Source: an uncultured Gammaproteobacteria bacterium
GTDB lineage: Bacteria > Patescibacteriota > Microgenomatia > UBA12405 > JAHJSD01
Assembly (NCBI GenBank): GCA_964498425.1
Contig: CAZCGQ010000001.1
Coordinates: 163,063 to 227,062, forward strand
Direction: 5' to 3'
DNA: 64,000 nucleotides
The translations under genes and the position numbers were made by a program. Positions 51,484 through 64,000 of the stretch are shown here, piece by piece (position 1 is the first letter of the stretch; every line of letters starts with the position of its first letter). Under the pieces are notes generated by a model. It was not told the DNA's origin. It ran no database searches and saw only the letters and a program-made list of their open reading frames with translations.

Positions 51484-51557
51484 GGGCGGTTAGCTCAGTT
51501 GGCTAGAGCGTTTCTTTGACGTAGAAAAGGCCAGGGGTTCGAGTCCTCTACCGCCCA
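51484..51557 (+). tRNA. tRNA-Val (anticodon GAC)
   Basis: Cloverleaf with acceptor GGGCGGU/ACCGCCC, D-arm GCUCAGUUGGCUAGAGC, anticodon stem UUUCU/AGAAA with loop uuGACgu, and T-arm AGGGGUUCGAGUCCUCU. Confidence 0.85.
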
Positions 51558-51648
51558 CCCACGTACCAGTGCAAGCACGGTACATGGCAAGCATCGGGGG
51601 TTTTACCCGCCGAAGCCTTGTACGTAGGAGGGTTTACCCGCCGCAGGC

Positions 51649-51722
51649 GGGCCGTTAGCTCAGTCGGCTAGAGCGCTGTCCTGATAAGACAGAGGTCTCA
51701 GGTTCGAGTCCTGAACGGCCCA
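51649..51722 (+). tRNA. tRNA-Ile (anticodon GAT)
   Basis: Cloverleaf with acceptor GGGCCGU/ACGGCCC, anticodon stem CUGUC/GACAG with loop cuGAUaa, and T-arm UCAGGUUCGAGUCCUGA. Confidence 0.85.
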
Positions 51723-51726
51723 CCCA
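51709..51726 (+). repeat. 18-bp direct repeat, left copy (TCCTGAACGGCCCACCCA, the 3' end of tRNA-Ile): attL-like
   Basis: An exact copy recurs at 55063..55080. An upstream GTTCGAG block is also shared. Confidence 0.6.
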
Positions 51727-51797
51727 TAGTTACAACCGCACTTCCAAACAAGATGTCAAAGGGTGGTTTTAGCCTTGCCTTCCAAACTTTTTCACCT

Positions 51798-52145
51798 TTA
51801 ACAATAAAGTTCAAGAAACTTGTCAAATTCCATAACCTTATCCTCAATTTTTTCTTTCTTTAAAAAGCCGAGTAACATTCCCGATTCAAGCATATTCCTC
51901 GAAATTTTATTTGGTTTCCAGGAGATTATCGAATTAAACACACCTTCGTTAATATCTTTAATCATTTCATTGAATTTTGGCCTGTTATCTGAATCCTTAG
52001 CACTTTTATTCTCTTTATAAGTTTTTACGACCTTAAGACCTAATCTGTCTGCAGAAGTTTGACATTCCTGAATTTGGTCGGTTAACGAATACTCCTGTTT
52101 GTTATCCCCACTAGTAGACTTTCTTGCATAAATGCAGTAAACCAA
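51798..52145 (-). pseudogene. Serine recombinase (resolvase/invertase) catalytic-domain remnant lacking a DNA-binding domain
   Basis: CIYARKSTSGDNKQEYSLTDQ is the YxRxST catalytic-Ser motif. DSDNRPKF...NKISRN is the SG/DRLsR region. The ORF ends after ~115 aa. Confidence 0.55.
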
Positions 52146-52264
52146 ATCTTCCTTGTTGACCTATTTTGACTTTATAAGTTCATTGAATAACCGAAACAAC
52201 CCCCCGTAGTTGCCATTTTTCAATCACAATTTAATATTATTTAATCCTAAATTTTTATAATCTA

Positions 52265-52855
52265 CTAAAAACCTAAGCTGATTAGAGCTTCTTCATCACC
52301 AAGCAACTTTAAATCCCCGACCTTTAACTTAAATCCCTTAGCGTCAGTAGGAACTTCATATATATCAATAAATTCAAAAGGAACGTTAGGATTTAGGTTA
52401 GACAACATGAACAAACTTTTATCTTCAGGAATCCAATCGCTAGCGTCAGGAGCAGGTTTAAATTCCCGGTTTTGGTCATCCATCAAATCTAAGTTGGAAA
52501 CAGATTTCATTTCTTTGCCCAAGTTTTCAACCATAACCGTTACTTCAACAAACTTTCCACTGGCGGTTTTATCCTCAGATAAGGAGGGATATTTACTGTC
52601 TGAAGCTTTTAACACAGAACCTAAATCTCTAGCGTCAACCAATTTCCACTTTACCTCGTCAACGACAACTTCTTCGCCCATCTGATAAATTTTTTCCTCT
52701 TCTTGTTTTCCCTCATCGTTTTTTGTCGTAGTTTGTTCTTGATTAGTTGAAGTAGTAGGTTTTTCCCCTTCGTTGCCGCCTGTAGCCACAATTATTACTA
52801 CTAAAACAACAAAGGCAATCAAGCCCCATTTGAAAAGCTTTTTCACTTTCTTCAA
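52265..52855 (-). CDS. Membrane-anchored secreted protein, DUF4352-like (uncertain)
   Basis: N-terminal TM anchor, then a Thr/Glu-rich linker and a beta-rich domain. Architecture typical of phage/island-associated DUF4352 lipoproteins. Confidence 0.3.
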   Translation of the reverse strand: MKKVKKLFKWGLIAFVVLVVIIVATGGNEGEKPTTSTNQEQTTTKNDEGKQEEEKIYQMGEEVVVDEVKWKLVDARDLGSVLKASDSKYPSLSEDKTASGKFVEVTVMVENLGKEMKSVSNLDLMDDQNREFKPAPDASDWIPEDKSLFMLSNLNPNVPFEFIDIYEVPTDAKGFKLKVGDLKLLGDEEALISLGF

Positions 52856-53264
52856 TTTTGTTCACCCCCTTTCTTGGGAGTATCCATATTTTAGTCTATC
52901 CTTTAGCTAAGGATAAGTCAAAAACAGTTTTAGGCAACCTCTAACGTCTTCAAAAGCCAATTCTTGACAACTAAAATGAAGTCCTGATTATGAAAGGTCC
53001 TTAATATTCAAAAAACTTTGGGTAATATAAGATAAGTAAATATACTTACAAATTTTTAATATAAACAAATATAGCTTACGGTTAATTATTTAACTTCCTC
53101 AAGTAGGTTCCTTGCCTAGGGGCATAAAAACTATTTTGTCTAAGACCAAAATTAACAGTAGTGAATTCAAAAGGTATAGCTCAAAATCGTTTGATTCAAA
53201 CTTCATCATTATTTAACCCTGTACACCTATATTTTTTATATTTCTTTGATATAATTCGCCTAAA

Positions 53265-54620
53265 ATGAGCAAATTGATTATTGAAAAAAACTACAAGGCT
53301 GTAGAAGCTGGCCTTCAAGTACCCAACAATGACTTCAATATTTTCATTGGAGCTAATAACTCCGGAAAAACATCTTTATTAGGAGCCATCCACAAAAAAA
53401 TCGGAAGGGCTAATGCAGTTACAGTTTCACCACAAAGATTCAACATTAATCCCAATCTTAAAGAAGATGACAGGGAAAGGTTTGACGATTACGTTCGAAC
53501 TTCAAAGTCTAAAGGTGCAACTCACAATGGCTCAAATGAGGTAAGCCTTCCCAATTTCATACAATTATTCGCTGGTATGGAAAGAATTGATAGCAACCGG
53601 TTAATTGCCTGGATAAACAACAATTTTCCCATCAACATACTAAGAAGAGAAGATACAAGCAAAGGAGTAACCAAAACAATTCTTGAGATTGATGGACAAC
53701 CACCTGATGTTCAAGGTACGGGATTAAGGTCGTTAATGAACTTACTTTTTCACGTTTTTAGCTCAGATAACAAGGTATTGCTAATAGATGAACCAGAAAT
53801 ATCTATTGAGCCAGAAAAACAAAAAATTTTATTTGATTTATTAAAAAATGTAAGCCAAGGACAAGTAGATGGAGTGGAAAAAAAGCAGATTTTTATTGCA
53901 ACTCACTCTCACCTTTTTTTAGACAGGCAAAAAATAAGTAACAATTATCTGATTACCAAAGATTCTCTAGGAAAAGTTGAAATATACCAACTTAAAACCG
54001 AAAATGAATTCTATACCAAAGTTTTTAGTATGATAGGCGTAACTCCACAAGACATGTTTTTACCTAATAATATTTTAGTTGTTGAAGGTCCAAGTGACTA
54101 TTTTTTCTTGAGAGAGGTAGTGAACCAATTGAATAATACCGGTAAAGTTATTGCCATTCATCACGCAGAATCAGACTCTAGGATATGTGGAGCTTGTCGT
54201 TCAATTGACGATATTCTAAAAATTCCACTTAATCCAGAAATTTTCCTTTACCGAGGCAAACTCTGTGTGTTGTTTGATAAGCAAAAAAGGCAACAATACG
54301 TTGAAGACGCAAGAAAAGCATACAGTGATGACGGTTCACGTATAAGACAATTAACGAAAGGCCCCATTGAGCTATATTATCCCCCAAAGATTGTATCAAG
54401 AATTACTGGTATCGACTCAAATAACATTGAGAAAGCGTTAATGAAATTTGTTAAAAATTGTAAAAAAAGTAAAGATGGAAGGGGCAAATTAGGACAGAAT
54501 AAATTCAGTAAGGTTGAACTGGCTAAAAAGGTAGTTGAAAAAATGAAAGATTCCAATGATTGGGAACTTAACCAAGAAATTGAAGATATTGTAAACAAAG
54601 TAATTAAGTTAGGATATTAA
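53265..54620 (+). CDS. OLD-family nuclease (N-terminal ABC-type ATPase + C-terminal Toprim), anti-phage defence candidate
   Basis: Walker A IFIGANNSGKTSLLGAI, an ABC-signature-like GTGLRSL, Walker B VLLIDEPE, an H-loop ATHSHLF, then the Toprim-like ILVVEGPSDYFFL and acidic residues downstream. Confidence 0.6.
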   Translation: MSKLIIEKNYKAVEAGLQVPNNDFNIFIGANNSGKTSLLGAIHKKIGRANAVTVSPQRFNINPNLKEDDRERFDDYVRTSKSKGATHNGSNEVSLPNFIQLFAGMERIDSNRLIAWINNNFPINILRREDTSKGVTKTILEIDGQPPDVQGTGLRSLMNLLFHVFSSDNKVLLIDEPEISIEPEKQKILFDLLKNVSQGQVDGVEKKQIFIATHSHLFLDRQKISNNYLITKDSLGKVEIYQLKTENEFYTKVFSMIGVTPQDMFLPNNILVVEGPSDYFFLREVVNQLNNTGKVIAIHHAESDSRICGACRSIDDILKIPLNPEIFLYRGKLCVLFDKQKRQQYVEDARKAYSDDGSRIRQLTKGPIELYYPPKIVSRITGIDSNNIEKALMKFVKNCKKSKDGRGKLGQNKFSKVELAKKVVEKMKDSNDWELNQEIEDIVNKVIKLGY

Positions 54621-55062
54621 ACTATCTCACGAGAGAGCAAATTATTTCCTTCTTCGAACACTTATAGTATTAGTTCGAGAAGAATTAAGCTATAGTGTAC
54701 TGGTTAGTAGTTGGATAGGAAAAGCCCTGTTTTTTAAGGTCTACAACTGCCCCGTCAATTCCAATCACTTGAGTAGACGTTAGTTCAATTCCTCCAACTG
54801 TTGAAGTTCCACTTGCCGTAGTCGTGGTTTTTGTTGGGATTTCAATTTTAATAATTTCTCAGTTAGCTTCGCCAAATCGTTAAACATTGTTTTTTCTTGA
54901 TTAATTTTTAACTTTTAAATTTAACGAGATTATATAGAATAACTTTCCCAATAGTTTGCGGTAGGAAGTCTATTTCACCAAATAAATAGGCGTCCATTTC
55001 TTGGTTGAAGTTTTTGATTACGTTAGAATTGTAAAACGCAAAGTTGTAAAGTTCGAGGTAAA

Positions 55063-55080
55063 TCCTGAACGGCCCACCCA
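55063..55080 (+). repeat. 18-bp direct repeat, right copy (attR-like)
   Basis: Exact match to 51709..51726. Confidence 0.6.
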
Positions 55081-55084
55081 CTCC

Positions 55085-55124
55085 TTGACAATGTACAATT
55101 AAAATGTTAGATTAAATTTAACAT
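55085..55124 (+). promoter_or_regulatory. Putative promoter (TTGACA-17nt-TAGATT) with the palindrome ATGTTAG-N9-TAACAT overlapping the -10 and start codon of the antitoxin gene
   Basis: Read directly from the sequence. This is the typical layout of an autoregulated toxin-antitoxin operator. Confidence 0.4.
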
Positions 55125-55368
55125 GAATGTTGTAACATCTACTACACTAAGAAACAATTTAGCCGATGCCTTTAACGAGGTAGCTGAAAAAGATTATCTT
55201 TTGGTCTCCAAAAGGGGCAAAATAAAATCTGCCCTGGTTAATATCAACTTTTTAGAGGATTTATTAGCCCTGGCTAATAAAAAGTATCTAGCAAGCATAA
55301 AAAAAGCCAGAGAGGAATATGAAAAAGGGGACGTTTTTACCCATGAACAAGCCTTCGGCGAAATATAA
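55123..55368 (+). CDS. Type II antitoxin, Phd/YefM family
   Basis: TTLRNNLADAFNEVAEKDYLLVSKRGK...VNINFLEDLL matches the Phd/YefM fold. Confidence 0.75.
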   Translation: MNVVTSTTLRNNLADAFNEVAEKDYLLVSKRGKIKSALVNINFLEDLLALANKKYLASIKKAREEYEKGDVFTHEQAFGEI

Positions 55369-55609
55369 GCTTCTTTATACCAAATCCGCAATTAAGGATA
55401 TTAACAAACTTGATCCTGTCGCTAAAAAGAAAATCAAAAAAAAGATAGAACTATATTCACGAAAGCCATTCAGGCATGCAAAAAAACTAATCGACTCAGC
55501 TTTAGGTACATACCGGTGGCGGGCTGGCGACTACCGAATAGTGTTTGATCGAGATGAAAACAAACTAATTATCCTCTGCGTTGGCCACCGCAAAGAAATC
55601 TACCGGTAA
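55343..55609 (+). CDS. Type II toxin, RelE/ParE family
   Basis: KYKLLYTKSAIKDINKLDPVAKKKI...YRWRAGDYRIVFDRDENKLIILCVGHRKEIY. It overlaps the antitoxin; the start is uncertain (an ATG at 55343 is assumed). Confidence 0.75.
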   Translation: MNKPSAKYKLLYTKSAIKDINKLDPVAKKKIKKKIELYSRKPFRHAKKLIDSALGTYRWRAGDYRIVFDRDENKLIILCVGHRKEIYR

Positions 55610-55686
55610 CCTTTAACTCTTTACTATTAACTATTCACAATACTTATCCGAACATCAGGTCCAAACCCCGCCGATTAAGCCAGTTT

Positions 55687-56910
55687 TTAATTCACCCAAC
55701 CGCCTTTTCCAGAAGCTATTTTCAATTGTTCAGCGGAAATCCTTCTTGCGTGATGACGTTGAACTTGGAGCTCTAATTCTTGCCTCGATAACAATGCACG
55801 CCTAACTCGATAAAAATCCCTATCGTTTTTTATCCCCCAACGTTCTTGCTCCGATTTTAACCTTTTATCTAACTTGGGATACGTTTGTTCATCCCTACTA
55901 AACCGAGCTAAACTAACCAACTTACCAATTTCCCTGTCATCAAGTCCCATAACTCTTAAACCTCTTATCAGATTAAAAGCCTTGTTTGCTAATAAAAAGT
56001 CACTATCATTTTCACTATAATAATCAACAACAAATCTAGCTATTTCATCTCTTTCATCTAGGCTTTTATCACCAAACCCAGGGTTACTAGCCGTTGCTTC
56101 AAAAGCATGAATTTCACCAAGGATTTTATCATTGGTGAAATTTGACCGTATTTTTTTAACTAAATGATAAGTTGAAGCCATAAAAGACAGTGCTGGAACA
56201 AGTCCATATCTGGAAAGAATAGTTTGATACCCGACCGCCCGACTTAGTCCAGGTAAATATAACATTGCTTTTTGCATTTTCGAGTATTGCTTATCATGTG
56301 TCAATTCATGATCCAAATTGAATATCAGTTTTGGTAATTCTCCCTCATCAGCCATTGAAGCCCACATTTCTTCCACCGTTGGAGACTTAAATGGAAAAGC
56401 AGCTAAATCAAGTAACGGTAAATAGACCCCTCCAATGCTTTTCTTTCCCATTACTTTTGCGACTAAGGAATCTGGTGCAAAAAATCTAACCCAGGAGTCA
56501 TATCGACCATTTTCTAAACCGGCAAGAAGGGCGGCGGCAATACCAACATCTTCAAGTTCCTCAAGATATTCAGTTTCTCCTCTTAGCCTAAGAATCAAAT
56601 GATCAAACTCTGGCTTTAAATCCTTAGAAGGAATCCTGGATAAATAACTCTCGGCAATACCCGTCGAAAGTCCAACGGGACGATTTATCAACTCGAAAAA
56701 TTGATTAAGATTATCCCTATAAGCTACTAATTTCTTAATCTCTTGACTACCCGAATCTACTTCGTCAATATCTCGAAATCCGTCTCGTATGTGCGCTTCA
56801 AATTTCCGCTGCATCCACTCTTCAGGAGATATAAAATCGTCTCGATAACGCTCATAAATAACTTGGAGTTGATCACTACCTATTCTTTCTCCACCTTCTT
56901 CTGTCATCAT
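55687..56910 (-). CDS. Hypothetical 407-aa soluble protein with an HExxH motif (possible zinc metallopeptidase-like)
   Basis: The only recognisable feature is the motif NLDHELTHD. No TM helix. Confidence 0.3.
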   Translation of the reverse strand: MMTEEGGERIGSDQLQVIYERYRDDFISPEEWMQRKFEAHIRDGFRDIDEVDSGSQEIKKLVAYRDNLNQFFELINRPVGLSTGIAESYLSRIPSKDLKPEFDHLILRLRGETEYLEELEDVGIAAALLAGLENGRYDSWVRFFAPDSLVAKVMGKKSIGGVYLPLLDLAAFPFKSPTVEEMWASMADEGELPKLIFNLDHELTHDKQYSKMQKAMLYLPGLSRAVGYQTILSRYGLVPALSFMASTYHLVKKIRSNFTNDKILGEIHAFEATASNPGFGDKSLDERDEIARFVVDYYSENDSDFLLANKAFNLIRGLRVMGLDDREIGKLVSLARFSRDEQTYPKLDKRLKSEQERWGIKNDRDFYRVRRALLSRQELELQVQRHHARRISAEQLKIASGKGGWVN

Positions 56911-56928
56911 TAAATTCTATCAAAAAAT

Positions 56929-58104
56929 TTATCCAAACATCAGCCAGGAGGGCTTAAAGAGAAGAAGCAGGCCGATAATAAACATCAAAATTCCTCCAAT
57001 AAGATTGGAATATCGGGAGTACTTAGTAGAAATACCAGTCATCTGCATGGTAATCATTGCGGCAAAGAAAACAAACAGGTCATCAACCATAAAGAAGAAG
57101 ATATAAATGGCTATGTAAAAATAATACCGCCAGGTGGCTAAATTATTAATTGCCAAAACCTGAGTGAAGACCGCCGGCAAACCAGCTGAACAAATTAACT
57201 CCACGACATTAACCGCCAAAGCCAGCAAAATTATCCCTCCTAAAGCCAATATAAAATTCCGGCGATGGGTTATATCCTTAATTTTGTCAAAAACCCGACG
57301 GCGTTTTTCATCCCCAGTAACCTTACAACCGCCGTCCTTATTCACCCAAAATTCACGTAAATTATAACCACCTGCAGCCAAAGCAACTAGACCAATTGCC
57401 AACCTAATCCAAATAACCATTCCTAAAAGTAAAAAGAAATTTAGCCAAGCCGCCATAATCATGAAGTAGACAAAGGCGGAAGTAACAATAAAGGCAATTC
57501 CAAGAATCCACATTCTTTTCTTATCTTTCATTCCCAGCAGCAAGGAAATTAAAAATAACAGTGTCCACATCGCACAAGGATTAAACCCGTCCAACGCTCC
57601 CAAAATAACTGATAACGCCGGTAGAGAAAGTTCTTTAGTCTTAATCTGACCTAAAATGGGTACGCTCAAATTATCCGGGATAACTGCGGAATTAGGCAAA
57701 GTAGACTGATTAGCTTCCCCTAAAATATCTTGACAGCCGGTTTCAATCGCACACTGAACATGTTCCTCTATTTTTTGTCCAGTTGTTTCATCATTATGAT
57801 AGCCGACAACATAATGTTCACCAATAACCGTAAAGGGTACACCAGGAATTTGGACATCAAGTTTTTCTCCAGCCTCTTGAAGCAACTTGGCATTATTATC
57901 CTTGCCAATTTCATAATCTTTGACAACCACTTCCGAATATTCGCTCTGAAGCCCTTTTAAAAACTCCTTCTCCTTAGCACAGTGCGGACATCCTTGACCC
58001 CAAAAAAAATGTACGGTTACCTGATTATTCTGGGCAAAAGTCGGTGAAGCCAAAAAAAATATCCCGGCGACAAAAATAGTTAACCATAGGAATACTTTTT
58101 TCAT
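56929..58104 (-). CDS. Thioredoxin-like domain (CPHC) fused to a CcdA/DsbD-type transmembrane thiol-disulfide transporter
   Basis: Signal peptide, then WGQGCPHCAKEK. A polytopic domain follows with conserved TM cysteines (FNPCAMW, ELICSAGLP). Confidence 0.7.
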   Translation of the reverse strand: MKKVFLWLTIFVAGIFFLASPTFAQNNQVTVHFFWGQGCPHCAKEKEFLKGLQSEYSEVVVKDYEIGKDNNAKLLQEAGEKLDVQIPGVPFTVIGEHYVVGYHNDETTGQKIEEHVQCAIETGCQDILGEANQSTLPNSAVIPDNLSVPILGQIKTKELSLPALSVILGALDGFNPCAMWTLLFLISLLLGMKDKKRMWILGIAFIVTSAFVYFMIMAAWLNFFLLLGMVIWIRLAIGLVALAAGGYNLREFWVNKDGGCKVTGDEKRRRVFDKIKDITHRRNFILALGGIILLALAVNVVELICSAGLPAVFTQVLAINNLATWRYYFYIAIYIFFFMVDDLFVFFAAMITMQMTGISTKYSRYSNLIGGILMFIIGLLLLFKPSWLMFG

Positions 58105-58409
58105 CTTTCTCGGTTCTCTTTGACAATCTCAATTAACTTTTCTTTTGGATGTTCCCCATTAAGCCGTAAAAATTCCTGACCCTCCTTATCTAGAAAGATA
58201 AAAACCGGAAGTTTCCCGCTTTCAACCCCGTATTCTTCAACTTTTTCCTTTTTTTTATCATAATCCAAATACTCTGTTTCCAGCCAAGAAAGCTCTTTTT
58301 CAATTTCCGCCCACCGCGGCTTCATCACCAAACAACCGGCACACCAATCCGCCCCAATTTTAATTACTTTCATAAGAGCCATTGTAAAACCTTGCTTTAA
58401 TTTTTTCAA
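58101..58409 (-). CDS. Thioredoxin
   Basis: ADWCAGC is the WCxxC active site. The Met at 58382 is the probable true start. Confidence 0.75.
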   Translation of the reverse strand: MKKLKQGFTMALMKVIKIGADWCAGCLVMKPRWAEIEKELSWLETEYLDYDKKKEKVEEYGVESGKLPVFIFLDKEGQEFLRLNGEHPKEKLIEIVKENRER

Positions 58410-59241
58410 GTTCGGTTTTCACCTTTAAATTTGTATCCATAACGGGATTTAATTTTGACAACGCTTTAAAAATTTTCCTGTCATAACTAATTTTTCCCAA
58501 AAACTTCTCGCCTGCCCAATTTTCAATTTCATCAGCCAAATCACGATTAAGATCAAATTTATTGACAACCAAACGCCAAGGCAGATCAAACTTATTAACG
58601 ACCATTAAAATCCTTTTTAAATCGGACTTGCCCGTCAAAGTCGGTTCGGTTACAAGAATAACTACATCTGCCTCCTTCAAGCCAGCAGTAACCGGACAAC
58701 CAATCCCGGCTGGGATATCAATTAAAGTAATCTTTGCCTTAAATTCACGGCTCTTTTTAATAATCTCGTCAACAATTTTTCCAGAGCCTGTTTCCCCAGG
58801 ATAAAGTTTTCCGGATATTAAATTAAATCCGTGTATATTTTTCTTAATTCTTAGTTGCCCATTAACAACCTTAACCATATCAATAACATTTGGACCTAAA
58901 ACCTGCTGACATAAACCGCAACCTTCGCATAAAAAGGAATTAACTCGAAGATTATCGTTTTGACAACTAATTGCTCCAAATTGACATGGCACATTAAAGT
59001 CACTGCAATCAAAATTCGATTTTTGTACTGCTGCCCTTTCCGTTAATGATAGTTCTCCTGTTTCATCCCATTGATCAATTCCACCTAACCACAAATGTAA
59101 ATTGGGAGCATCAACATCAGCGTCTACCGCAACAACCGTACTCTCGTGACTAAGCATCATCGCCAAACCAGAGGCAAGCATTGACTTACCAACGCCCCCC
59201 TTACCTGAAGCAACTGCAATAGTCAGATTTTGCCTAGACAC
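58360..59241 (-). CDS. MinD/ParA-superfamily P-loop ATPase with an inserted 4Fe-4S ferredoxin-type cysteine motif (COG1149-like)
   Basis: ASGKGGVGKS is a deviant Walker A. CEGCGLCQQV is the ferredoxin-like Cys motif. Confidence 0.7.
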   Translation of the reverse strand: MSRQNLTIAVASGKGGVGKSMLASGLAMMLSHESTVVAVDADVDAPNLHLWLGGIDQWDETGELSLTERAAVQKSNFDCSDFNVPCQFGAISCQNDNLRVNSFLCEGCGLCQQVLGPNVIDMVKVVNGQLRIKKNIHGFNLISGKLYPGETGSGKIVDEIIKKSREFKAKITLIDIPAGIGCPVTAGLKEADVVILVTEPTLTGKSDLKRILMVVNKFDLPWRLVVNKFDLNRDLADEIENWAGEKFLGKISYDRKIFKALSKLNPVMDTNLKVKTELEKIKARFYNGSYESN

Positions 59242-60065
59242 TTTTCTACCCGATGACTTTCTAATTTCAATAGATTCCCTCTAGCATAACCATCTGCAAT
59301 TTTTTGACAGTGGGGAACCTCAGCAATAATCTTTTCTGGGTCAAAATTATTTTTTATTAAATCAATATTCCCCAAATCCGCCTGATTAATTACAACCTTA
59401 TAGCCTATACCCAATTTTTTAATCACCTCAACGATCACTTTCAAATCATGTTGGCCCAAAGGCGTAGGCTCAGTTACTGCAATTGCCTGATTAACTTCTA
59501 ACAAAGCATTAATTACACTACAATGAGCCCCCGGGGCTGTATCAATAATAATCGTTTCAACACCTAATTCTTCTGCTCTCTGCCGAGCATGTTTTCGTAA
59601 ATCCTGAACAACTGGCCCAGTCTCATCAACGCCATAGCCTGATCGACCAGTTATTAACAGCAAATTATCATTTATTTTGCTTTCAAAAATTTCGCCTATT
59701 GTTTTTTTAATTTTAGTAATTGCTCCAAATGGACAAACATGCCAACATAAGCCACAATTAGCACACAAATCATTATAAAATTCTGGCGCATTTCCAGGTG
59801 GAGCAAATATTGCATTAAATCTGCATTTTTGACCGCATAAACCGCATTTCTGACATTTACTTTCAATCAATTTGGGGAAATAAGCCGCGACTTGACTAAC
59901 CAAACTATCAAGTTTTTGGTTGGTTAAAAGGTAATCATTAGGACACTCAACATCAGCATCAACTAAAATCACCTTTTTCTTTTTAGCAATTTGGCCGGCA
60001 AGCAAAACGGCAATCGTTGATTTCCCAACACCGCCCTTACCCCCGGTAACCGCAACTTCCCTCAT
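59223..60065 (-). CDS. MinD/ParA-superfamily P-loop ATPase with two 4Fe-4S ferredoxin motifs
   Basis: TGGKGGVGKST. CQKCGLCGQKCRFNAI and CANCGLCWHVCPFGAI. Confidence 0.75.
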   Translation of the reverse strand: MREVAVTGGKGGVGKSTIAVLLAGQIAKKKKVILVDADVECPNDYLLTNQKLDSLVSQVAAYFPKLIESKCQKCGLCGQKCRFNAIFAPPGNAPEFYNDLCANCGLCWHVCPFGAITKIKKTIGEIFESKINDNLLLITGRSGYGVDETGPVVQDLRKHARQRAEELGVETIIIDTAPGAHCSVINALLEVNQAIAVTEPTPLGQHDLKVIVEVIKKLGIGYKVVINQADLGNIDLIKNNFDPEKIIAEVPHCQKIADGYARGNLLKLESHRVEKCLGKI

Positions 60066-61322
60066 CTATTTCTTCTCCTTTGTTGGCTGACTAGTTTTTT
60101 TCAACTTCTCATCAATATATAAATCTACTGCCTCTTTTACTGTTTTTTCATCGGTCAAATAAACATCGATAAGATAATCCCGCAAAGTATGAAAGGAGAT
60201 TTCCCCAATCTCTTTAGTAATGACAATATTTGCCCTCTGAGCATTAATCAGTTTTACTACCGCTAGTCCCGCCCTTACTTCCTTTTCGCGATATGGGTTT
60301 TTAACTGCATATTCACCAATAATCTTATCCTTTTTAATGTTTACAAAAAGATAATTATCTGCCCGGCCAAATTCTTTAGCTACCTTTGATTGTAAACCCT
60401 TGTCATTATCAATAGGAAAAGCCAAGTGTGAATATTCATCAGTGTGAGGTTCAATGTGGACAAAAAAAGAATCAATATCTCTAAAATTATTTTTAACTTT
60501 GGCCTCAATTTGGTCAGCAATCTTATGAGCTCGATCAACCTCAACCTCTTTTTTAATGCCAACCTTAACCTGGCCAAAAACAAACGGTCCAGATTGCCTC
60601 AATTTCAAGTCAAAAGCCTCTTCAACACCTGGAATTTCCTCTACAGCTGTAATTACTTCCTGGTGCAAATTTTCACCAGGACTGACATCCATTAATCCCA
60701 GAACTCCTTCTTTAGCGGCTTCAATTCCGATTTTTAAAATTAAACCTGAAATTACTAAGGTAATAATTCCTTCAACGTAAGGAATATTGTTAACCGTTGC
60801 TAGAGTTCCAAAAAAGACCGCTGAAGAAGTTAAAATATGAGTACGGTTCTCTTTTCCCAAAGATATTAGACTTTGAGAATTTATTTCTTGGCCAATTTTA
60901 ACTTCATATCGGCCAAAGAAAAATAATATAACTGCATCCAATAATGATATTCCCATTGCCAAATAGGGAACTTGAATAGCTGACAAAGAAGTTAAACGTG
61001 AAAGTCCTCGAACAACCATTTGACCAAAGGCGTAGAATATTAGTCCGGAAATAATAACCGTTGTTAAATTTTCTGCTTTGTAATAACCATAAGGGAATTT
61101 TTCATCTGGTTCCTTTTGGGCTAATTTTAATCCCAACCAGGAAGCAAATATTGTAAATAAATCCGAAACGCTGTGAACAGCGTCAGATATTAAAACGACA
61201 CTGCCAGAAATTAAACCAATAATCACCTTTGAACCAGCTAAAACAGTTTCTAGTCCAGCAGCAACTTCAGTTAATCGCTGACCTTTTTTTAGATTATTTT
61301 TCTCCATCTGATATTTCCTCAA
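60066..61322 (-). CDS. Cation diffusion facilitator (CDF) transporter fused to a C-terminal NifX/NafY-like (dinitrogenase FeMo-cofactor-binding fold) domain
   Basis: The CDF TM domain carries SDAVHSVSD and a KFPYGYYKAE region. The C-terminal ~105 aa read FPIDNDKGLQSKVAKEFGRADNYLFVNI...GLAVVKLINAQRANIVITKEIGE, which matches the PF02579 pattern. Confidence 0.65.
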   Translation of the reverse strand: MRKYQMEKNNLKKGQRLTEVAAGLETVLAGSKVIIGLISGSVVLISDAVHSVSDLFTIFASWLGLKLAQKEPDEKFPYGYYKAENLTTVIISGLIFYAFGQMVVRGLSRLTSLSAIQVPYLAMGISLLDAVILFFFGRYEVKIGQEINSQSLISLGKENRTHILTSSAVFFGTLATVNNIPYVEGIITLVISGLILKIGIEAAKEGVLGLMDVSPGENLHQEVITAVEEIPGVEEAFDLKLRQSGPFVFGQVKVGIKKEVEVDRAHKIADQIEAKVKNNFRDIDSFFVHIEPHTDEYSHLAFPIDNDKGLQSKVAKEFGRADNYLFVNIKKDKIIGEYAVKNPYREKEVRAGLAVVKLINAQRANIVITKEIGEISFHTLRDYLIDVYLTDEKTVKEAVDLYIDEKLKKTSQPTKEKK

Positions 61323-61620
61323 TAACTTGTTCGACTGTTAAATCTGTTGACTTAGACATCATTTTAATGCCAGCTGATTCCAAAACTCGAACCGCATTCG
61401 GTCCAAAATTACCGGCAACAACCATTTTTATTCCCTGAGCAGCAACAAACTGACCGGTAGATACCCCTGCTCCTCTCTGTGCTGTTTTACCAGGGTTATC
61501 AACAACCGTTATGTTAACAGGTTGATCGAGATCAACTATTTGAAAATATTGACATCGCCCAAATCGAGAATCAATTAAACTGGTCTTGTCCTTGCCTTGA
61601 GCAGCAACTGCAACTTTCAT
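61294..61620 (-). CDS. NifX/NifB-like dinitrogenase FeMo-cofactor biosynthesis-domain protein (PF02579)
   Basis: MKVAVAAQGKDKTSLIDSRFGRCQYFQIVD...GIKMVVAGNFGPNAVRVLESAGIKM. Start set at the internal Met (61620), giving a 4-nt overlap with the upstream gene. Confidence 0.75.
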   Translation of the reverse strand: MKVAVAAQGKDKTSLIDSRFGRCQYFQIVDLDQPVNITVVDNPGKTAQRGAGVSTGQFVAAQGIKMVVAGNFGPNAVRVLESAGIKMMSKSTDLTVEQVIEEISDGEK

Positions 61621-62129
61621 TTTTCCCTCTTTCTGATTAATTGACTGCCGCATTTGGGACAAACTTGTTGATAACAAGGTTCACCCGGTTGATGTGCTTC
61701 TTGATAATCACACTCCGGGTTAGGGCAGCTGCAATAACCGCCAGGCCCTGCCTGCAGCGATCCGCCTTTTCTACCTCGTCCCTGACCAACACCAAATCCT
61801 TTGCCTCGCCCTCTACCTGGTCTTCCATTTCCATTATTAACCATATTTCCCTCACCTCCTTTCACTCGTATCGCCTGTCCTAATACTAATCCTTTAGCTA
61901 TCTTTTTTCTAGCTGAAGATAAAATCCGCTGAAGAGTACTCTGAGATACTTTCATTTCTTGAGCAGCACTTTCTTGGTCAATCCCGTCAAAATCAACTAG
62001 GCGTATTGCTTCCAACTCATCATGAGCCACATTAACTTCCTTCAAATGCTTTAGCGGTACATTTACCGGCTTAAAATAAGTTATTTCTGGTACAAATTTA
62101 ACCCTTCTTGGGTTCTTAGGTCTAGGCAT
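61617..62129 (-). CDS. DUF134 (UPF0251) predicted DNA-binding protein with a C-terminal Cys4 zinc ribbon
   Basis: PRPKNPRRVKFVPEITYFKP...LEAIRLVDFDGIDQESAAQEMKVSQSTLQRIL is the DUF134 HTH region. The C-terminus reads CSCPNPEC...CPKCGS. Confidence 0.65.
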   Translation of the reverse strand: MPRPKNPRRVKFVPEITYFKPVNVPLKHLKEVNVAHDELEAIRLVDFDGIDQESAAQEMKVSQSTLQRILSSARKKIAKGLVLGQAIRVKGGEGNMVNNGNGRPGRGRGKGFGVGQGRGRKGGSLQAGPGGYCSCPNPECDYQEAHQPGEPCYQQVCPKCGSQLIRKREK

Positions 62130-62162
62130 ATATTATGAATATATACCCATAATCCCTCTTTG

Positions 62163-62534
62163 TCAAGTGATTTGCTCGTCATCCGATACATCAATAGTGA
62201 TCCGCTTAGGAGAAAGTAAACTATTTCTTTTAAGAATTTTTTCAGACCTTTCAGAAAAATGCACCGGCATTCCCTGATCCTCATAGCCTCTTCTATTTGC
62301 TTCTAATATCTCCTCTAAGGATAAACAACCAGTAATTCTTTCAATATTTTCTGGGCCCGCAGTTCCCGCAGATCCTGGACGCAAAATTATATCTCCATCG
62401 GCAGCTTGGAATAACCTTGCCGAATGAAAAAAATGTTTATTCTCAGGACCAACATTTATAACCACATCTTCTCTGCCTGGATAATTTTTAACAGAAAAGG
62501 TATTTCCAAATTCGATTTCAATTTCCTTCTTCAT
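62163..62534 (-). CDS. Hypothetical protein, possibly DUF126/AcnX-small-subunit-like
   Basis: Weak resemblance only (ILRPGSAGTAGPENI against the GSxxGS region). Confidence 0.25.
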   Translation of the reverse strand: MKKEIEIEFGNTFSVKNYPGREDVVINVGPENKHFFHSARLFQAADGDIILRPGSAGTAGPENIERITGCLSLEEILEANRRGYEDQGMPVHFSERSEKILKRNSLLSPKRITIDVSDDEQIT

Positions 62535-62628
62535 AATAAGAAATTATACCTAATATTCCACCAAATCACAATTACCATTTCAATTATTGCGCGATCGCGC
62601 ATTCTGAGGAAATTAGTTATCGGAGAAA

Positions 62629-63174
62629 TTACATTAATTCTTCAATTTCTTCAACTAACTGCTCTGGAGTAGAAACTATCTCGTAAACCCGAAGTTCTTC
62701 GTCACGTATACGCATATTTTTGCCGAATGCTTCCATTATTTCGTGCCACCATGACCCATAAAGCAGCATCGGCTTGTGTTTGCCAAAAAAGAGCCTGGCT
62801 AAACCCCAAGCCATGCCAAACTCGGATACCGTACCTGTTCCTCCGTTAAAGACAACATAAACATCTCCTAAATCCAAAAGTTTTTTGGTTCTTTGCCAAT
62901 AATCTTCAGCCATAATCTCCTTATCAACAGGATTAGACGAATCTTTACCCTCAAAAAAGGTCATCCCTTCCGCCTTAAAACTAACCCCGATGGTTTTTCC
63001 CCCCGCTTCGTTTCCCCCCAAAGTAGATGCCTTCATTATCCCTGGACCGCCACCATTAACAATCGTTATTCCCTTCTTAGCCAGCAGAAATGCTGACTTT
63101 TTTGCCGCTTGAAAATCCTCGCTTTCCGGACTGGCTTCAGAATGGCCAAAAAAGGTTACGGCTTTAATCTTCAT
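62629..63174 (-). CDS. LOG-family protein (cytokinin riboside 5'-monophosphate phosphoribohydrolase / TIGR00730)
   Basis: NGGGPGIMKA and FNGGTGTVSEF (the PGGxGTxxE motif). Confidence 0.8.
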   Translation of the reverse strand: MKIKAVTFFGHSEASPESEDFQAAKKSAFLLAKKGITIVNGGGPGIMKASTLGGNEAGGKTIGVSFKAEGMTFFEGKDSSNPVDKEIMAEDYWQRTKKLLDLGDVYVVFNGGTGTVSEFGMAWGLARLFFGKHKPMLLYGSWWHEIMEAFGKNMRIRDEELRVYEIVSTPEQLVEEIEELM

Positions 63175-63901
63175 AATCTGATGATAACAAACTTTTTAAT
63201 TTTTTGGCATTATCGATTGCAAATCCTTGAAAATCATTATTAAAGTAACAATAAACGCTCAACCCCTCTTCAAGATAATTCATAATCCGTAATTTATAAT
63301 TCTCTAATTCTTCATCCGAATATTTTGATTGATAATACCCATCGGGGCCGTGTAAACGTAAATAAGCAAAATCAGCAGTAACTATTTCCGGAGAAGGGGC
63401 ACCTTGATGGTCATGAATGCAAAACCCAATGCCATGCTTCTTTAATAAGCTGAAAACCTCATCCGTATACCAAGTCTTATTTCTAAACTCAAAAACCCAA
63501 CTCTGCTTATTGGGTAATAACTCAATAAAGCTTTTCAACCGATCAACATTTACATTCCACTGCGGCGGCAGTTGAAATAAAATCGGCCCGAGTTTACTAC
63601 CTAAAGGCTGAGCTCGCTCTAGTAAACGTGCAATTGGTTCCCCATCAACCATCAAATTTTTCATGTGGGTAATATATCGGTTGGCTTTAACAGTAAAAAT
63701 AAAATTATCACCAACACTGTCTGCCCAATTTTGGAAAGTTTTCTTTGACGGCAGGTTGTAAAAAGAATTATTTATTTCAACTGTGTCAAAGTGCTCAGCG
63801 TAATAATCTAAACGTTTGTTAGAAGCAATATCCAATGGGTAAAATTCATCTACCCAATCGTCATAAGAATAGCCTGAAGTCCCAATAAATATCTTACCCA
63901 T
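63164..63901 (-). CDS. DUF72 (UPF0759) family protein
   Basis: IGTSGYSYDDWVDEFYP...YYAEHFDTVEINNSFY is the DUF72 N-terminal signature. Confidence 0.8.
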   Translation of the reverse strand: MGKIFIGTSGYSYDDWVDEFYPLDIASNKRLDYYAEHFDTVEINNSFYNLPSKKTFQNWADSVGDNFIFTVKANRYITHMKNLMVDGEPIARLLERAQPLGSKLGPILFQLPPQWNVNVDRLKSFIELLPNKQSWVFEFRNKTWYTDEVFSLLKKHGIGFCIHDHQGAPSPEIVTADFAYLRLHGPDGYYQSKYSDEELENYKLRIMNYLEEGLSVYCYFNNDFQGFAIDNAKKLKSLLSSDYED

Positions 63902-64000
63902 TTTATACTTGCAAACCTTAGATCACCATCTTCTAAAATGTTCCGAACCGTGAGAAAGTCGCGGGGGTTGCCTTTCACTCATTGGAACCACTTTCACCGC

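Follow-up and report, generated by a model that had tools for sequence, protein, structure and literature searches.

The minus strand of the window (the whole 64,000-nucleotide stretch of DNA that was analysed) carries seven overlapping genes between positions 56929 and 62129, all lying where the first-pass annotation had placed them. An independent gene caller, run on the identical public contig, returned the same set, encoding proteins of 170, 108, 413, 280, 293, 93 and 391 aa. By its coordinates the junctions comprise overlaps of 4, 14, 19, 23 and 4 nt and one gapless junction, in agreement with the overlaps of 4–20 nt reported originally, and the genes form the single tight unit that had been proposed. 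The domain assignments were all confirmed by Pfam and NCBIfam. A further gene on the same strand (55687..56910), located 18 nt downstream of the 391-aa gene, encodes a 407-aa protein without a family match and may be co-transcribed with the operon; it lies outside the conserved set, being present in 1 of 80 related loci. A terminator-like hairpin with a 9-pair stem, a consensus match only, is found 3´ of this gene (55572..55597, minus strand) and represents the first non-coding terminator-like site downstream of the promoter at 62166.

Directly upstream of the first ATG (62129) lies a sigma-70-type promoter-like site, TTGACA-17-TATATT (62138..62166, minus strand), with 11 of 12 consensus matches, the best within 55400–64000. 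Given this position, the operon leader would be very short. TTGACA and an AT-rich −10 element are also found at the equivalent position in related loci. The −10 hexamer is covered by an imperfect 14-bp palindrome, TGGGTATATATTCA (62136..62149, minus strand), a candidate DUF134 operator that ends 6 nt 5´ of the start codon. Its consensus, TGAAYATATRTTCA, overlaps the promoter of such operons across phyla, and an exact 13-mer of the palindrome occurs as one copy per locus, just before the DUF134 gene, in seven diverged loci. Perfect palindromes were observed seven times in 830 kb (0.025 expected), and sites lying 150 nt or less from a DUF134 start numbered 15 of 47, against 0.5 expected. The GC-rich non-CPR locus L086 harbours a perfect site fused to TATAAT. 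Judged by this pattern of occurrence, the palindrome is probably the DUF134 operator; it could also be bound by another regulator.

The first gene (61617..62129, minus strand) encodes a 170-aa protein matching DUF134 (PF02001) at 83.7 bits (cutoff 27). The initial call of a regulator stands, but the gene itself is a fusion of three parts, namely a DUF134 helix-turn-helix (aa 3–93), a Gly/Arg-rich linker (approximately aa 94–132) and a 6-Cys/1-His module (aa 133–165). The family pattern of this module is AGPGG-x-C-x-C-x(2-4)-C-x5-H-x5-C-x4-CPxC, with C40, C42, C47, H53, C59, C64 and C67 being invariant (numbering of alignment A6). In most related loci, the Gly/Arg and 6-Cys part is a separate gene of 50–92 aa. 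The second gene (61294..61620, minus strand; true start, the ATG at 61620) encodes a stand-alone NifX-like protein of 108 aa with an FGRC motif, matching Nitro_FeMo-Co (PF02579) at 72.8 bits (cutoff 26.3) and similar in architecture to Orp8. F20, G21, R22, N42 and G73 are conserved, and the Cys is present in 80% of 59 homologues. The stand-alone and fused NifX families are both basic, with a median pI of 9.5, although the stand-alone protein of the window is acidic (pI 6.2).

The third gene (60066-61307, minus strand; true start, the ATG at 61307) encodes the 413-aa CDF–NifX fusion, with matches to Cation_efflux (131.9 bits), ZT_dimer (57.5) and Nitro_FeMo-Co (43.6), and to the CDF model TIGR01297 at 192.7 bits (cutoff 82.35). 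Its six-helix membrane domain (60690..61259, minus strand; Pfam and TIGR01297) has a transport site formed by H45/D49 on TM2 and E153/H157 on TM5, as aligned by phmmer and hhalign to D45/D49/H153/D157 of E. coli YiiP; these four residues are invariant across 74 sequences. The canonical cytoplasmic ZT_dimer domain (PF16916, 57.5 bits; 60444..60674, minus strand), whose PDB matches are the C-terminal domains of MamM and CzrB, retains H261, H284 and E286, corresponding to YiiP H261, H283 and D285, while F and K replace YiiP H232 and H248. The nearest characterised families are MamM/MamB (iron), MntE (manganese) and FieF (iron/zinc), with FieF/YiiP emerging from a second search. MamM and MamB score highest among the named CDF families, and the fusion reaches no equivalog cutoff of these families. 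The H/D/E/H site would suit Zn, Mn or Co as well as Fe.

It had been suggested that this transporter is fused to a NifX-like domain, and the possibility that its C-terminal domain is simply the canonical CDF one does not hold. The NifX-like domain (PF02579, 43.6 bits; 60093..60425, minus strand) is additional to the ZT_dimer, since Pfam places the two side by side and the AlphaFold model gives separate Foldseek matches to YiiP (8f6e; 283 columns, TM 0.85) and to the PF02579 protein PH0822 (114 columns, TM 0.83). This addition to the CDF faces the cytoplasm. Modelled with a pLDDT of 91–94 (Foldseek match 2yx6_D, TM 0.83), it has the motif FGRA...N337...AG...G368, no Cys and a basic pI of 8.6, and its sequence matches in the PDB are 1O13, 1T3V, 1EO1 and 2YX6. 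Both the Cys/His motifs of MrpORP (CxHFGHCE and CDH, proposed 3Fe-4S ligands) and the IssA tail are missing from it, and therefore ligand binding is only putative. A ZT_dimer accompanies the fused-type domain in 95 of its 150 closest representatives at 50% identity. It is plausible that metallocluster trafficking is coupled to cation export, as first suggested, and we infer the metal, the ligand and the coupling alike.

Two MinD/ParA-type ATPases follow, both with CbiA/ParA matches, a deviant Walker A motif (GKGGVGKS) and weak ArsA_ATPase matches in Pfam. Both had been described as carrying ferredoxin motifs. This is correct for MinDa (280 aa; 59223..60065, minus strand; CbiA, ParA and two Fer4 matches), whose inserted 2x[4Fe-4S] ferredoxin domain contains two complete CxxCxxCxxxC motifs (Cys 71, 74, 77, 81 and 101, 104, 107, 111), kept in 58 of 59 homologues; its architecture is that of Orp3/Orp4. 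The paralogue MinDb (293 aa; 58360..59241, minus strand; CbiA/ParA) has a degenerate insert, its Cys being limited to C105xxC108xxC111 and C86, enough for at most one 4Fe-4S cluster, whereas 35 of 50 homologues have two full motifs. Thus, one member of the pair lacks intact Cys ligands, because MinDb is without the full Cys set.

Of the two thioredoxins described at first, both contain a thioredoxin domain, but the second is a membrane fusion protein. The former (93 aa; 58101..58382, minus strand; PF00085, 41 bits, cutoff 23.5) has the active site WCAGC and is probably cytoplasmic, since no signal peptide is evident in its sequence; a WCGPC thioredoxin is present in 15 of the 80 loci. The latter, a membrane thiol-redox protein of 391 aa (56929..58104, minus strand) with weak Grx/DsbE matches, comprises a signal peptide, a thioredoxin-fold domain (CPHC) and a membrane domain of several helices in which C177 (NPC), C260 and C305 are invariant. 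Its AlphaFold model (pLDDT 74) confirmed the thioredoxin fold by Foldseek, with no match of the membrane domain to Pfam models or, by Foldseek, to the PDB. The family has more than 6400 matches, those named being from CPR bacteria. It belongs to the operon in 21–27 of the 80 loci, around a quarter, and the thioredoxin pair is thus loosely tied to the system.

No fewer than 264 species-level genomes encode the CDF–NifX fusion and, going by record names, most belong to CPR bacteria and DPANN archaea. Across the 80 related loci, the DUF134/6-Cys gene occurs in 65, the stand-alone NifX gene in 60 and MinD–Fer4 genes in 61, in a conserved order, and the recurrence of this neighbourhood is far beyond chance. 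Where the flanks are sufficient, the regulator lies upstream in 48 of 68 loci and an ATPase downstream in 50 of 67. The order NifX, CDF–NifX, ATPase pair is common to bacteria and archaea; in the archaeal loci L055, L064 and L079, the CDF gene sits between the two ATPase genes. Around a quarter of the fusion loci consist of regulator and CDF alone, with no ATPase nearby, and therefore the transporter is not strictly dependent on the ATPases. SufC-like ATPases recur near the fusion in 13 loci, scoring 199 bits against TIGR01978 (slightly under its cutoff of 212.8 bits), as do ZIP permeases in 8 loci, thioredoxins in 15 and W/R/G-rich coiled-coil proteins in 21 of 80; the Gly/Arg-rich segments are invariant. 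In other anaerobes, the 6-Cys protein is also found in FUR-headed clusters (L083 and L087) with two PF02579, two MinD–Fer4, Mrp, NifU_N and DUF5320 genes, and in another locus (L084) with FeS_assembly_P and a ZIP permease. The set of DUF134, PF02579 and MinD–ferredoxin genes does recur in anaerobes, as noted initially, but its function is not wholly unknown, as the Desulfovibrio ORP (orange protein) complex is its counterpart (PMC6345978).

The ORP complex is a little-understood iron–sulfur complex comprising the MinD-like proteins Orp3 and Orp4, which bear two 4Fe-4S motifs, and the PF02579 protein Orp8; the three co-purify, and MrpORP hands Fe-S clusters over to them (PMC6345978). The operon consists of an ORP-type module (an Orp3/Orp4-like ATPase pair and an Orp8-like NifX-fold protein) and a YiiP/FieF-type CDF antiporter. 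With a probability of roughly 0.45, we read it as an ORP-type module for iron/iron–sulfur homeostasis linked to what is probably an Fe(II) exporter, in a self-regulated operon of an anaerobic, small-genome bacterium, probably a CPR representative from the Microgenomates group. DUF134 would bind the palindrome and repress its own operon, while the 6-Cys module might sense metal or Fe-S status. The CDF would exchange protons for an outgoing divalent cation, with Fe(II) the likeliest candidate. The appended domain could hold an anionic metal–sulfur species non-covalently, like IssA or Orp8, or serve as a docking site for the soluble complex of NifX and ATPases; in both cases, export would follow the cellular Fe-S load. 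The ATPases may form an Fe-S carrier or scaffold heterodimer partnered by the small NifX protein, and the thioredoxin and membrane thioredoxin protein, as an optional add-on, could carry reducing power to the cell surface. Against this reading stand the several metals that the H/D/E/H site would suit, the ligand motifs missing from the fused domain, the fusion loci with no ATPase nearby, the possible binding of the palindrome by another regulator, the known ligand of Orp8, which is a Mo–Cu sulfide cluster rather than Fe-S, and the MinDb of the window, which is short of one cluster site.

Ordinary heavy-metal (Zn/Co/Cd/Mn) efflux, with the extra domain as a regulatory or oligomerisation appendage and the ORP-like genes sharing the regulator but acting separately, seems rather unlikely. 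The canonical CDF core, site-A ligands suiting several metals, the loci with regulator and CDF alone, and the classing of CDFs as detoxification transporters in a CPR protein-family survey (PMC6744442) agree with it. It sits poorly with the gene order maintained across bacteria and archaea, the single fold family of the appended domain and the adjacent stand-alone gene, the 95 of 150 relatives with a CDF cytoplasmic domain, and a gene context of iron and Fe-S rather than zinc. Less likely again would be an ATP- or redox-gated exporter similar to ArsAB, in which the MinD/ArsA-class heterodimer docks on the NifX-like domain and converts the proton-driven carrier into one that pumps or gates iron or small metal–sulfur species, with the ferredoxin inserts reporting the redox state. 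No ATPase-coupled CDF is known, and in some 25% of fusion loci an ATPase gene is absent from the vicinity; however, the CDF gene abuts MinDa gaplessly and lies between both ATPase genes in three archaeal loci, a fused domain without cluster ligands fits an adaptor role, and the weak ArsA_ATPase matches point the same way. Moreover, ATPases of this type are known to partner a PF02579 domain, as Orp3/Orp4 co-purify with Orp8 (PMC6345978).

It is doubtful, to a still greater degree, that the operon handles or stores iron sulfide as a 'split IssA', with basic NifX-fold proteins nucleating thioferrate-like FeS alongside partners rich in Gly/Arg(/Trp), such as DUF5320-like proteins and the N-terminus of the 6-Cys protein, and the CDF feeding or draining iron in the manner of MamB/MamM in magnetosomes. 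IssA pairs a PF02579 domain with a thioferrate-binding cationic Gly/aromatic tail (PMC5524996), which would accord with the basic NifX families, the W/R/G-rich proteins, the invariant Gly/Arg-rich segments and the MamM/MamB scores. Nevertheless, the window has no DUF5320-like gene and an acidic stand-alone NifX; the likeness to the IssA tail is compositional, not homology, and the DUF5320 matches are sub-threshold (E 0.001–0.4). In addition, CDFs move ions out of the cytoplasm, and such organisms have no known compartment. It is improbable that the system handles Mo/W–copper thiometallates as the original orange protein does, with NifX-fold proteins binding Mo–Cu sulfide clusters and the CDF removing the partner cation. 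The S2MoS2CuS2MoS2 cluster of Orp8-type proteins is bound non-covalently (cited in PMC6345978) and the fused domain is Cys-free like Orp8, but the neighbouring genes concern iron and Fe-S, no Mo/W or Cu transporter or cofactor gene was found among the recurrent families of the 80 loci or the genes listed for five further loci, and Cu(I) transport by CDFs is not known to us. Most improbable is a role in cell division or positioning, the proposal initially made for the ORP complex on account of its MinD-like subunits. The term 'putatively involved in cell division' has been applied to the complex, and MrpORP is found at the cell poles (PMC6345978, PMC3897727), but this published link is itself tentative, and the operon encodes transporter, cofactor-fold and redox proteins and no division genes.

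Regarding known systems, the resemblance to the ArsAB arsenite pump is a functional analogy only: a secondary carrier beside genes for a two-part MinD/ArsA-class ATPase. The carrier families are unrelated, the ATPases here bear ferredoxin inserts, and coupling is purely hypothetical. The nitrogenase cofactor carriers NifX, NafY and the NifB C-terminal domain share the fold family (PF02579, IPR003731), but the histidine of their HFG motif is replaced here (RFGRC, EFGRA), and nif genes were found neither among the window ORFs scanned nor in the recurrent families of related loci or the loci with genes listed. With IssA of Pyrococcus furiosus, the operon shares a PF02579 domain that is poor in or devoid of Cys and, in most family members, basic, as well as associated Gly/Arg-rich sequence and an anaerobic, sulfide-rich lifestyle. 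In contrast to IssA, the fused protein has no cationic tail of its own, its domain is attached to a transporter, and any nanoparticle formation would be conjectural.

The transporter shares with YiiP/FieF and MamM/MamB the six-helix membrane domain and ZT_dimer, the transport site on TM2 and TM5, the conserved H261, H284 and E286, and the structural match (TM 0.85). It differs from YiiP in its site (H-D/E-H versus D-D/H-D) and in lacking H232 and H248, and from all of them in the 120-aa NifX-fold domain added after the cytoplasmic domain. The ORP complex is governed by sigma-54 and an enhancer-binding protein rather than DUF134 and a sigma-70-like promoter, and its PF02579 fusion partner is an ATPase, not a membrane CDF. 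Moreover, the operon has no Mrp/NBP35 subunit (NF041136 at 30–46 bits, cutoff 450), no Orp5-like gene was identified in it, the ligand motifs CxHFGHCE and CDH are missing from its fused domain, and MinDb has a degenerate cluster site. The two systems, with the likeness to D. vulgaris Orp3/4/8 judged by architecture only, have in common paralogous MinD-like ATPases that occur as a pair and bear two 4Fe-4S ferredoxin motifs, a PF02579 protein that is small and of one domain, an anaerobic host in which the genes are clustered, and a PF02579 domain joined to a larger partner protein.

The operon occupies positions 62129 to 56929 of the window, on the minus strand, where ORF reading gives seven genes with products of 170, 108, 413, 280, 293, 93 and 391 aa. 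A gene caller applied to the identical public contig yields the same gene set, and the public-contig gene coordinates define five overlaps (4, 14, 19, 23 and 4 nt) and one junction without a gap. By Pfam and NCBIfam, the products belong, in order, to DUF134, Nitro_FeMo-Co (PF02579), Cation_efflux with ZT_dimer and Nitro_FeMo-Co, CbiA/ParA (two proteins) and thioredoxin, the last product showing a weak glutaredoxin/DsbE-like N-terminus. The seven-gene 'nif-like' cluster that the first-pass annotation had placed at 56929-62129 is thus borne out by the ORFs, the protein families and an independent gene caller. The other genes of the window, including UvrABD, DnaK, MetRS and MurJ, are bacterial, the G+C content is about 39%, and the closest named relatives are Microgenomates and Shapirobacteria, which makes a CPR origin probable.

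The 413-aa product of the third gene (60066-61307) is a YiiP-type CDF transporter with an additional NifX-like domain at its C-terminus. Its membrane domain is assigned to the CDF family by both PF01545 (131.9 bits, cutoff 26.6) and TIGR01297 (192.7 bits, cutoff 82.35). The AlphaFold model (mean pLDDT 85.7; 91-94 in the last domain) contains six long helices, and full-length YiiP (8f6e) superposes on it over 283 columns with a TM of 0.85 in Foldseek. When aligned by phmmer against PDB sequences and by hhalign against E. coli FieF (probability 99%), the transport site H45/D49 (TM2) and E153/H157 (TM5) corresponds to D45/D49 and H153/D157 of YiiP. The four residues are invariant across 74 homologues, and this ligand set (H/D/E/H) is unlike that of YiiP (D/D/H/D). 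The ZT_dimer domain (PF16916, 57.5 bits, cutoff 26.7), whose PDB matches are the C-terminal domains of MamM and CzrB, retains H261, H284 and E286, equivalent to YiiP H261, H283 and D285, while the positions of YiiP H232 and H248 are not kept. The best-scoring named relatives of the CDF are MamM/MamB, MntE and FieF, all below their own cutoffs; none of the equivalog cutoffs of the CDF specificity groups (FieF, MamM/B, MntE, ZitB) is reached, the scores being far under them for MamM (129, cutoff 350), MntE (120, cutoff 500) and FieF (109, cutoff 420).

The last 114 residues of the model superpose on the PF02579 protein PH0822 (2yx6_D; TM 0.83, rmsd 2.8, Foldseek), and PF02579 scores 43.6 bits in this fused domain and 72.8 bits in the stand-alone protein (cutoff 26.3). 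The fusion of a CDF to a NifX-like domain had been proposed from the start, together with the doubt that the C-terminal domain could be merely the canonical CDF cytoplasmic domain. This doubt is dispelled by Pfam, in which ZT_dimer and Nitro_FeMo-Co are separate, and by the predicted structure, in which YiiP and PH0822 are each matched; on these grounds, the NifX-like domain is judged to be an addition to the canonical cytoplasmic domain and not a misread ZT_dimer. The fused domain reads EFGRAD and is only 21% identical to the stand-alone one, with FGR...N...AG as the sole common skeleton. It contains no Cys in the window protein, as in 44 of 78 relatives, and it is basic (pI 8.6, with a family median of 9.5); the stand-alone NifX of the window has a pI of 6.2.

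When the fused-type domain was used by itself as the query of a full HMMER search, 350 representatives at 50% identity were obtained, 97 of them at E <= 1e-10. Because 95 of the best 150 carry ZT_dimer and 74 carry Cation_efflux, the fused domain is a separate subfamily living mainly on CDFs; the remainder of these 150 comprise fragments and short proteins, in addition to two proteins with FeS_assembly_P and one with a Mrp domain. Two matched stretches or extra length are seen in the homologous proteins P0425 (561 aa), P0383 (524 aa), P0362, P0394 and P0402; these may be CDFs in which the NifX-like domain is duplicated in tandem, or proteins composed of two such domains.

Both ATPases, MinDa (59223-60065) and MinDb (58360-59241), are CbiA/ParA proteins with the deviant Walker A motif GKGGVGKS. 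The expectation that the two would carry intact ferredoxin cysteines holds for MinDa, which has two full Fer4 motifs (Cys 71, 74, 77, 81 and Cys 101, 104, 107, 111), both present in 58 of 59 homologues. It fails for MinDb, where one motif is lost: only C105, C108 and C111 are found, plus C86 in a 'CQFGAI' context, a set that, as read from the sequence, would suffice for at most one cluster. Two complete motifs occur in 35 of 50 MinDb homologues, and the loss of one 4Fe-4S motif in the window lineage suggests an asymmetric heterodimer. None of the solved structures searched has the MinD-with-ferredoxin architecture.

The small thioredoxin (PF00085, 41 bits, cutoff 23.5) has the active site WCAGC. 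The 391-aa protein (56929-58104, minus strand) consists of a signal peptide, a thioredoxin domain and a membrane domain, and its family comprises more than 6400 matches, the named ones being CPR bacteria. Neither a Pfam model nor a PDB structural match was found for the membrane domain, in which NPC177, C260 and C305 are invariant; CcdA-like NPC / LPCTxGP motifs are present in some homologues. In some loci this gene is placed between the ATPase genes, and it is treated here as an optional add-on to the operon.

The regulator (61617-62129, minus strand) is a fusion in three parts: the DUF134 helix-turn-helix is followed by a linker rich in Gly and Arg and then by a module in which six Cys and one His are invariant. 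The DUF134 domain (aa 3-93 of 170; PF02001, 83.7 bits, cutoff 27) shows weak similarity to sigma-70 region 4, and its 71 bits with the NCBIfam equivalog PRK04217 fall short of the cutoff of 115. In most other lineages, including the related loci L045, L028 and L051, the Gly/Arg and 6-Cys part is a gene of its own (50-92 aa; P0246-P0298, annotated just as 'hypothetical') that heads the operon, and DUF134 by itself, about 92 aa long, is encoded after the second ATPase. The consensus of the separate protein is MPRGDGTGP..GRGRGRMGG..AGPGGxCxCPxCGxKxxHxxGxPCxxxxCPKCGxxMxRE. No curated family covers the 6-Cys/1-His module; sub-threshold DUF5320 matches at the N-termini of these proteins (overall range E 0.001-0.4) are leads only. 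The 6-Cys protein is also present in Thermodesulfovibrionales, Planctomycetes and an Asgard archaeon.

Directly upstream of the DUF134 gene lies TTGACA-17-TATATT, the best promoter-like site of the region; promoter and terminator scans gave total counts not above those of shuffles, and only the position of this best site is used as promoter evidence. Its -10 hexamer is overlapped by TGGGTATATATTCA (62136-62149), a site of the 14-bp palindrome TGAAYATATRTTCA that is conserved over the -10 box of DUF134-headed operons of bacteria and archaea. Besides the window, the palindrome is located in the related loci L019 (5070), L027 (502), L028 (3035 and 8065), L054 (5540), L059 (2601) and L086 (6606). 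Seven loci each have exactly one copy of the 13-mer GGGTATATATTCA, always in the same place; their fusion proteins share only 55-72% identity with that of the window, and the rest of their intergenic DNA cannot be aligned. Other loci have the perfect palindromes TGAATATATATTCA or TGAACATATGTTCA, and Woesearchaeota-type loci have the variant ATGCATTATAATGCAT instead. The motif is also found upstream of operons in which the 6-Cys gene comes first and DUF134 last (L045, L066 and L076). In L086, from a GC-rich genome outside the CPR, the TATAAT box of the DUF134 gene and a perfect site are fused.

In 830 kb there are 7 perfect matches, vs 0.025 expected, and of the 47 loose matches 15 are no more than 150 nt away from the start of a DUF134 gene, vs 0.5 expected. 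At up to two mismatches, the total of 47 sites vs about 34 in shuffles is not significant by itself, and the case is built on perfect matches and position. A Fur or Rex box was considered and rejected as the identity of the palindrome, since its half-sites and spacing differ from theirs (7-0-7, TGAAYAT/ATRTTCA). The palindrome is a probable DUF134 operator, through which DUF134 would cover the -10 box and repress its own operon, with the 6-Cys module as the candidate sensor part.

A relative of the fusion is encoded in at least 264 species (scan of one genome per species), and the three-domain architecture is found in all of the 120 best protein matches. In the 80 loci retained from these species, one of them cut by a contig end, the relatives align over essentially the whole 413 aa at 40-72% identity. 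Names on the bacterial records include Shapirobacteria, Portnoybacteria, Paceibacterota and 'Patescibacteria group', and those on the archaeal ones Aenigmatarchaeota, Woesearchaeota (among them a complete chromosome) and Bathyarchaeota. Many third-party MAGs (L001-L021 and others) are titled 'uncultured Gammaproteobacteria', 'Pseudomonadales' or 'Saccharibacteria'; their proteins are 50-67% identical to the CPR-type operon, with the same gene order, and these titles look unreliable as taxonomy.

The recurrence of the DUF134, PF02579 and MinD-ferredoxin neighbourhood, as anticipated by the first-pass annotation, is confirmed: DUF134 or the 6-Cys gene is present in 65 of the 80 loci, stand-alone NifX in 60, each ATPase in 61 and the membrane thioredoxin protein in 21, and the order regulator, NifX, CDF-NifX, ATPase a and ATPase b is strongly conserved. 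Where the flank is long enough, the regulator is upstream in 48/68 loci and an ATPase downstream in 50/67. About a quarter of the loci have the regulator and CDF only, and in three archaeal loci (L055, L064 and L079) the CDF gene is flanked by the two ATPase genes. Unbiased clustering of flanking ORFs revealed further neighbours: a WCGPC thioredoxin and a family-4 uracil-DNA glycosylase (15 loci each), a SufC-like ATPase (13 loci; 199 bits, cutoff 212.8), an AhpD/CMD-like protein (10), a ZIP permease (8), a metallo-beta-lactamase (MBL)-fold protein (6) and small Trp/Arg/Gly/Phe/Pro-rich proteins with a C-terminal coiled coil (21 loci, including L049, 145-531). A representative of the latter matches DUF5320 at E = 0.4 only, below threshold.

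The genes immediately upstream of the operon (62629-63901, minus strand) belong to the LOG/TIGR00730 and DUF72 families, a pair retained only in the three closest relatives (L002, L003 and L033). Two flanking proteins of 407 aa (55687-56910, minus strand) and 123 aa (62163-62534, minus strand) have no Pfam or NCBIfam match and each recurs in only one of the 80 loci (L002). The stretch 51484-55609, of low GC (0.34) and adjoining tRNA-Val and tRNA-Ile, encodes a DUF4352 protein, an AAA_15/AAA_21 (AbiEii/OLD-like) ATPase and a Phd/YefM-ParE toxin-antitoxin pair; a resolvase gene is present there on the identical public contig, and the stretch may be a small mobile or defence islet. An Rfam scan of the window detected three tRNAs only, with no riboswitch near the operon.

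Five further clusters with the 6-Cys gene, from outside the CPR and DPANN, bear on the choice of metal. L083, named Thermodesulfovibrionales, contains genes for a CGGC protein, FUR, DUF5320, two PF02579 proteins, Mrp, NifU_N, an MBL-fold protein, two MinD-Fer4 proteins and a radical SAM protein; L087 encodes FUR, DUF5320, two PF02579 proteins, a radical SAM protein, an MBL-fold protein and a fused double MinD-Fer4 protein. L084 has two PF02579 genes, FeS_assembly_P and ZIP; L085 has PadR, two PF02579 and two MinD-Fer4 genes, Mrp, radical SAM and ferredoxin; and L086 has DUF134, 6-Cys, DUF5320 and PF02579. PF17253 (DUF5320) is found on the proteins at the place of the Trp/Arg/Gly-rich ones in L083 (1257-1667), L086 (7573-7914) and L087 (677-1222). 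A gene of the FUR family, an iron regulator, is at the head of the gene string in L083 (629-1102) and L087 (161-622), the place held by DUF134 in the window, and several of the clusters include bona fide Fe-S assembly genes. It is mainly for these two reasons that an iron or Fe-S reading is preferred over Mo-Cu or zinc.

While the architecture and synteny are solid, the function of the operon is inferred. Under the iron or Fe-S reading, the step held with most confidence is that the CDF would export a divalent cation, probably Fe(II). The NifX-fold domain would then couple export to the Fe-S state, either through a non-covalent hold on anionic metal-sulfur species, as described for IssA and Orp8 (PMC5524996, PMC6345978), or as a docking site for the NifX/ATPase complex. 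With decreasing confidence, the ATPase pair may act as an Fe-S carrier or scaffold, and a thioredoxin relay may send reducing power out. The boldest reading compatible with the data, in which the ATPase pair would be coupled to the CDF carrier in the manner of ArsAB, is improbable. The whole may represent an undescribed CPR/DPANN machine, to which we assign a probability of about 0.15, in which the CDF is coupled via a NifX-fold adaptor to a ferredoxin-bearing MinD/ArsA-class heterodimer under DUF134 control. It would resemble ArsAB, exporting or inserting iron or small iron-sulfur species under the control of ATP or redox state, and DUF134 would be a new class of metal/Fe-S-sensing repressor that binds the palindromic box and has the 6-Cys/1-His module as its sensor.

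The component families and the ORP-type neighbourhood (that of the Desulfovibrio 'orange protein' complex) are already known. In the searchable literature, no paper was found on the CDF-PF02579 fusion, its conserved CPR/DPANN operon, a split or fused 6-Cys partner of DUF134, DUF134/UPF0251 function or DUF5320; one UPF0251 match proved to be an unrelated mutation table. Nor did any paper returned by these searches on the proteins tie the palindrome box to DUF134. Stand-alone PF02579 proteins, MinD-ferredoxin ATPases (ORP complex) and DUF134 are common in anaerobes but have no settled cellular role. In this operon they are joined to a recognisable transporter and a promoter/operator, from which a substrate class (iron or Fe-S) and a DNA site for DUF134 are predicted and a sensor module is put forward as a candidate. 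Should the connection with iron-sulfur homeostasis be true, it would show how iron and sulfide are managed with minimal genomes and minimal SUF systems. CDFs are reported to be scarce in CPR (PMC6744442), so that a notable part of those kept there may be of the fused form. That bacteria and archaea have a near-identical operon also suggests gene exchange between these two groups of ultra-small organisms.

Among known systems, NifX proper, the nitrogenase cofactor carrier, is associated with nif genes. Here nifB/E/N/H/D/K are absent from the 33 window ORFs scanned, the recurrent families of the 80 loci and the gene lists of L083-L087, in agreement with the early statement that none of these genes is nitrogenase. 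The IssA clade is defined by a basic PF02579 domain and a cationic Gly/aromatic-rich C-terminal tail; the tail is missing from the NifX-like proteins of the window, where Gly/Arg-rich sequence sits on the adjoining regulator, and the composition of the Trp/Arg/Gly-rich neighbours recalls the thioferrate-binding tail of IssA. MrpORP is described as a fusion in which a Mrp/NBP35 ATPase, bearing a CXXC motif, is joined to a PF02579 domain whose CxHFGHCE and CDH motifs are proposed to hold a 3Fe-4S cluster (PMC6345978). The window fusion does not fit this description and its fused domain lacks both motifs; the MrpORP model NF041136 gives the operon proteins 30-46 bits against a cutoff of 450.

The closest parallel is offered by the ORP complex, in which Orp8, a PF02579 protein, is co-purified with Orp3 and Orp4, and the latter two acquire Fe-S clusters from MrpORP (PMC6345978). 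Orp3/Orp4 of D. vulgaris are likewise a paralogous pair of P-loop MinD-like ATPases, with two 4Fe-4S motifs, and the link of MinDa and MinDb to DVU2103/DVU2104 is one of architecture and context only. The ORP complex is a physical assembly of subunits with a Mo-Cu sulfide cluster on its PF02579 subunit, and Orp5 and Orp9 are among these subunits; no Mrp or Orp5-like gene was found in the window operon. The two also differ in control, with a sigma-54 promoter and a cognate enhancer-binding protein for the ORP complex, and a sigma-70-like promoter and DUF134 for the operon described here.
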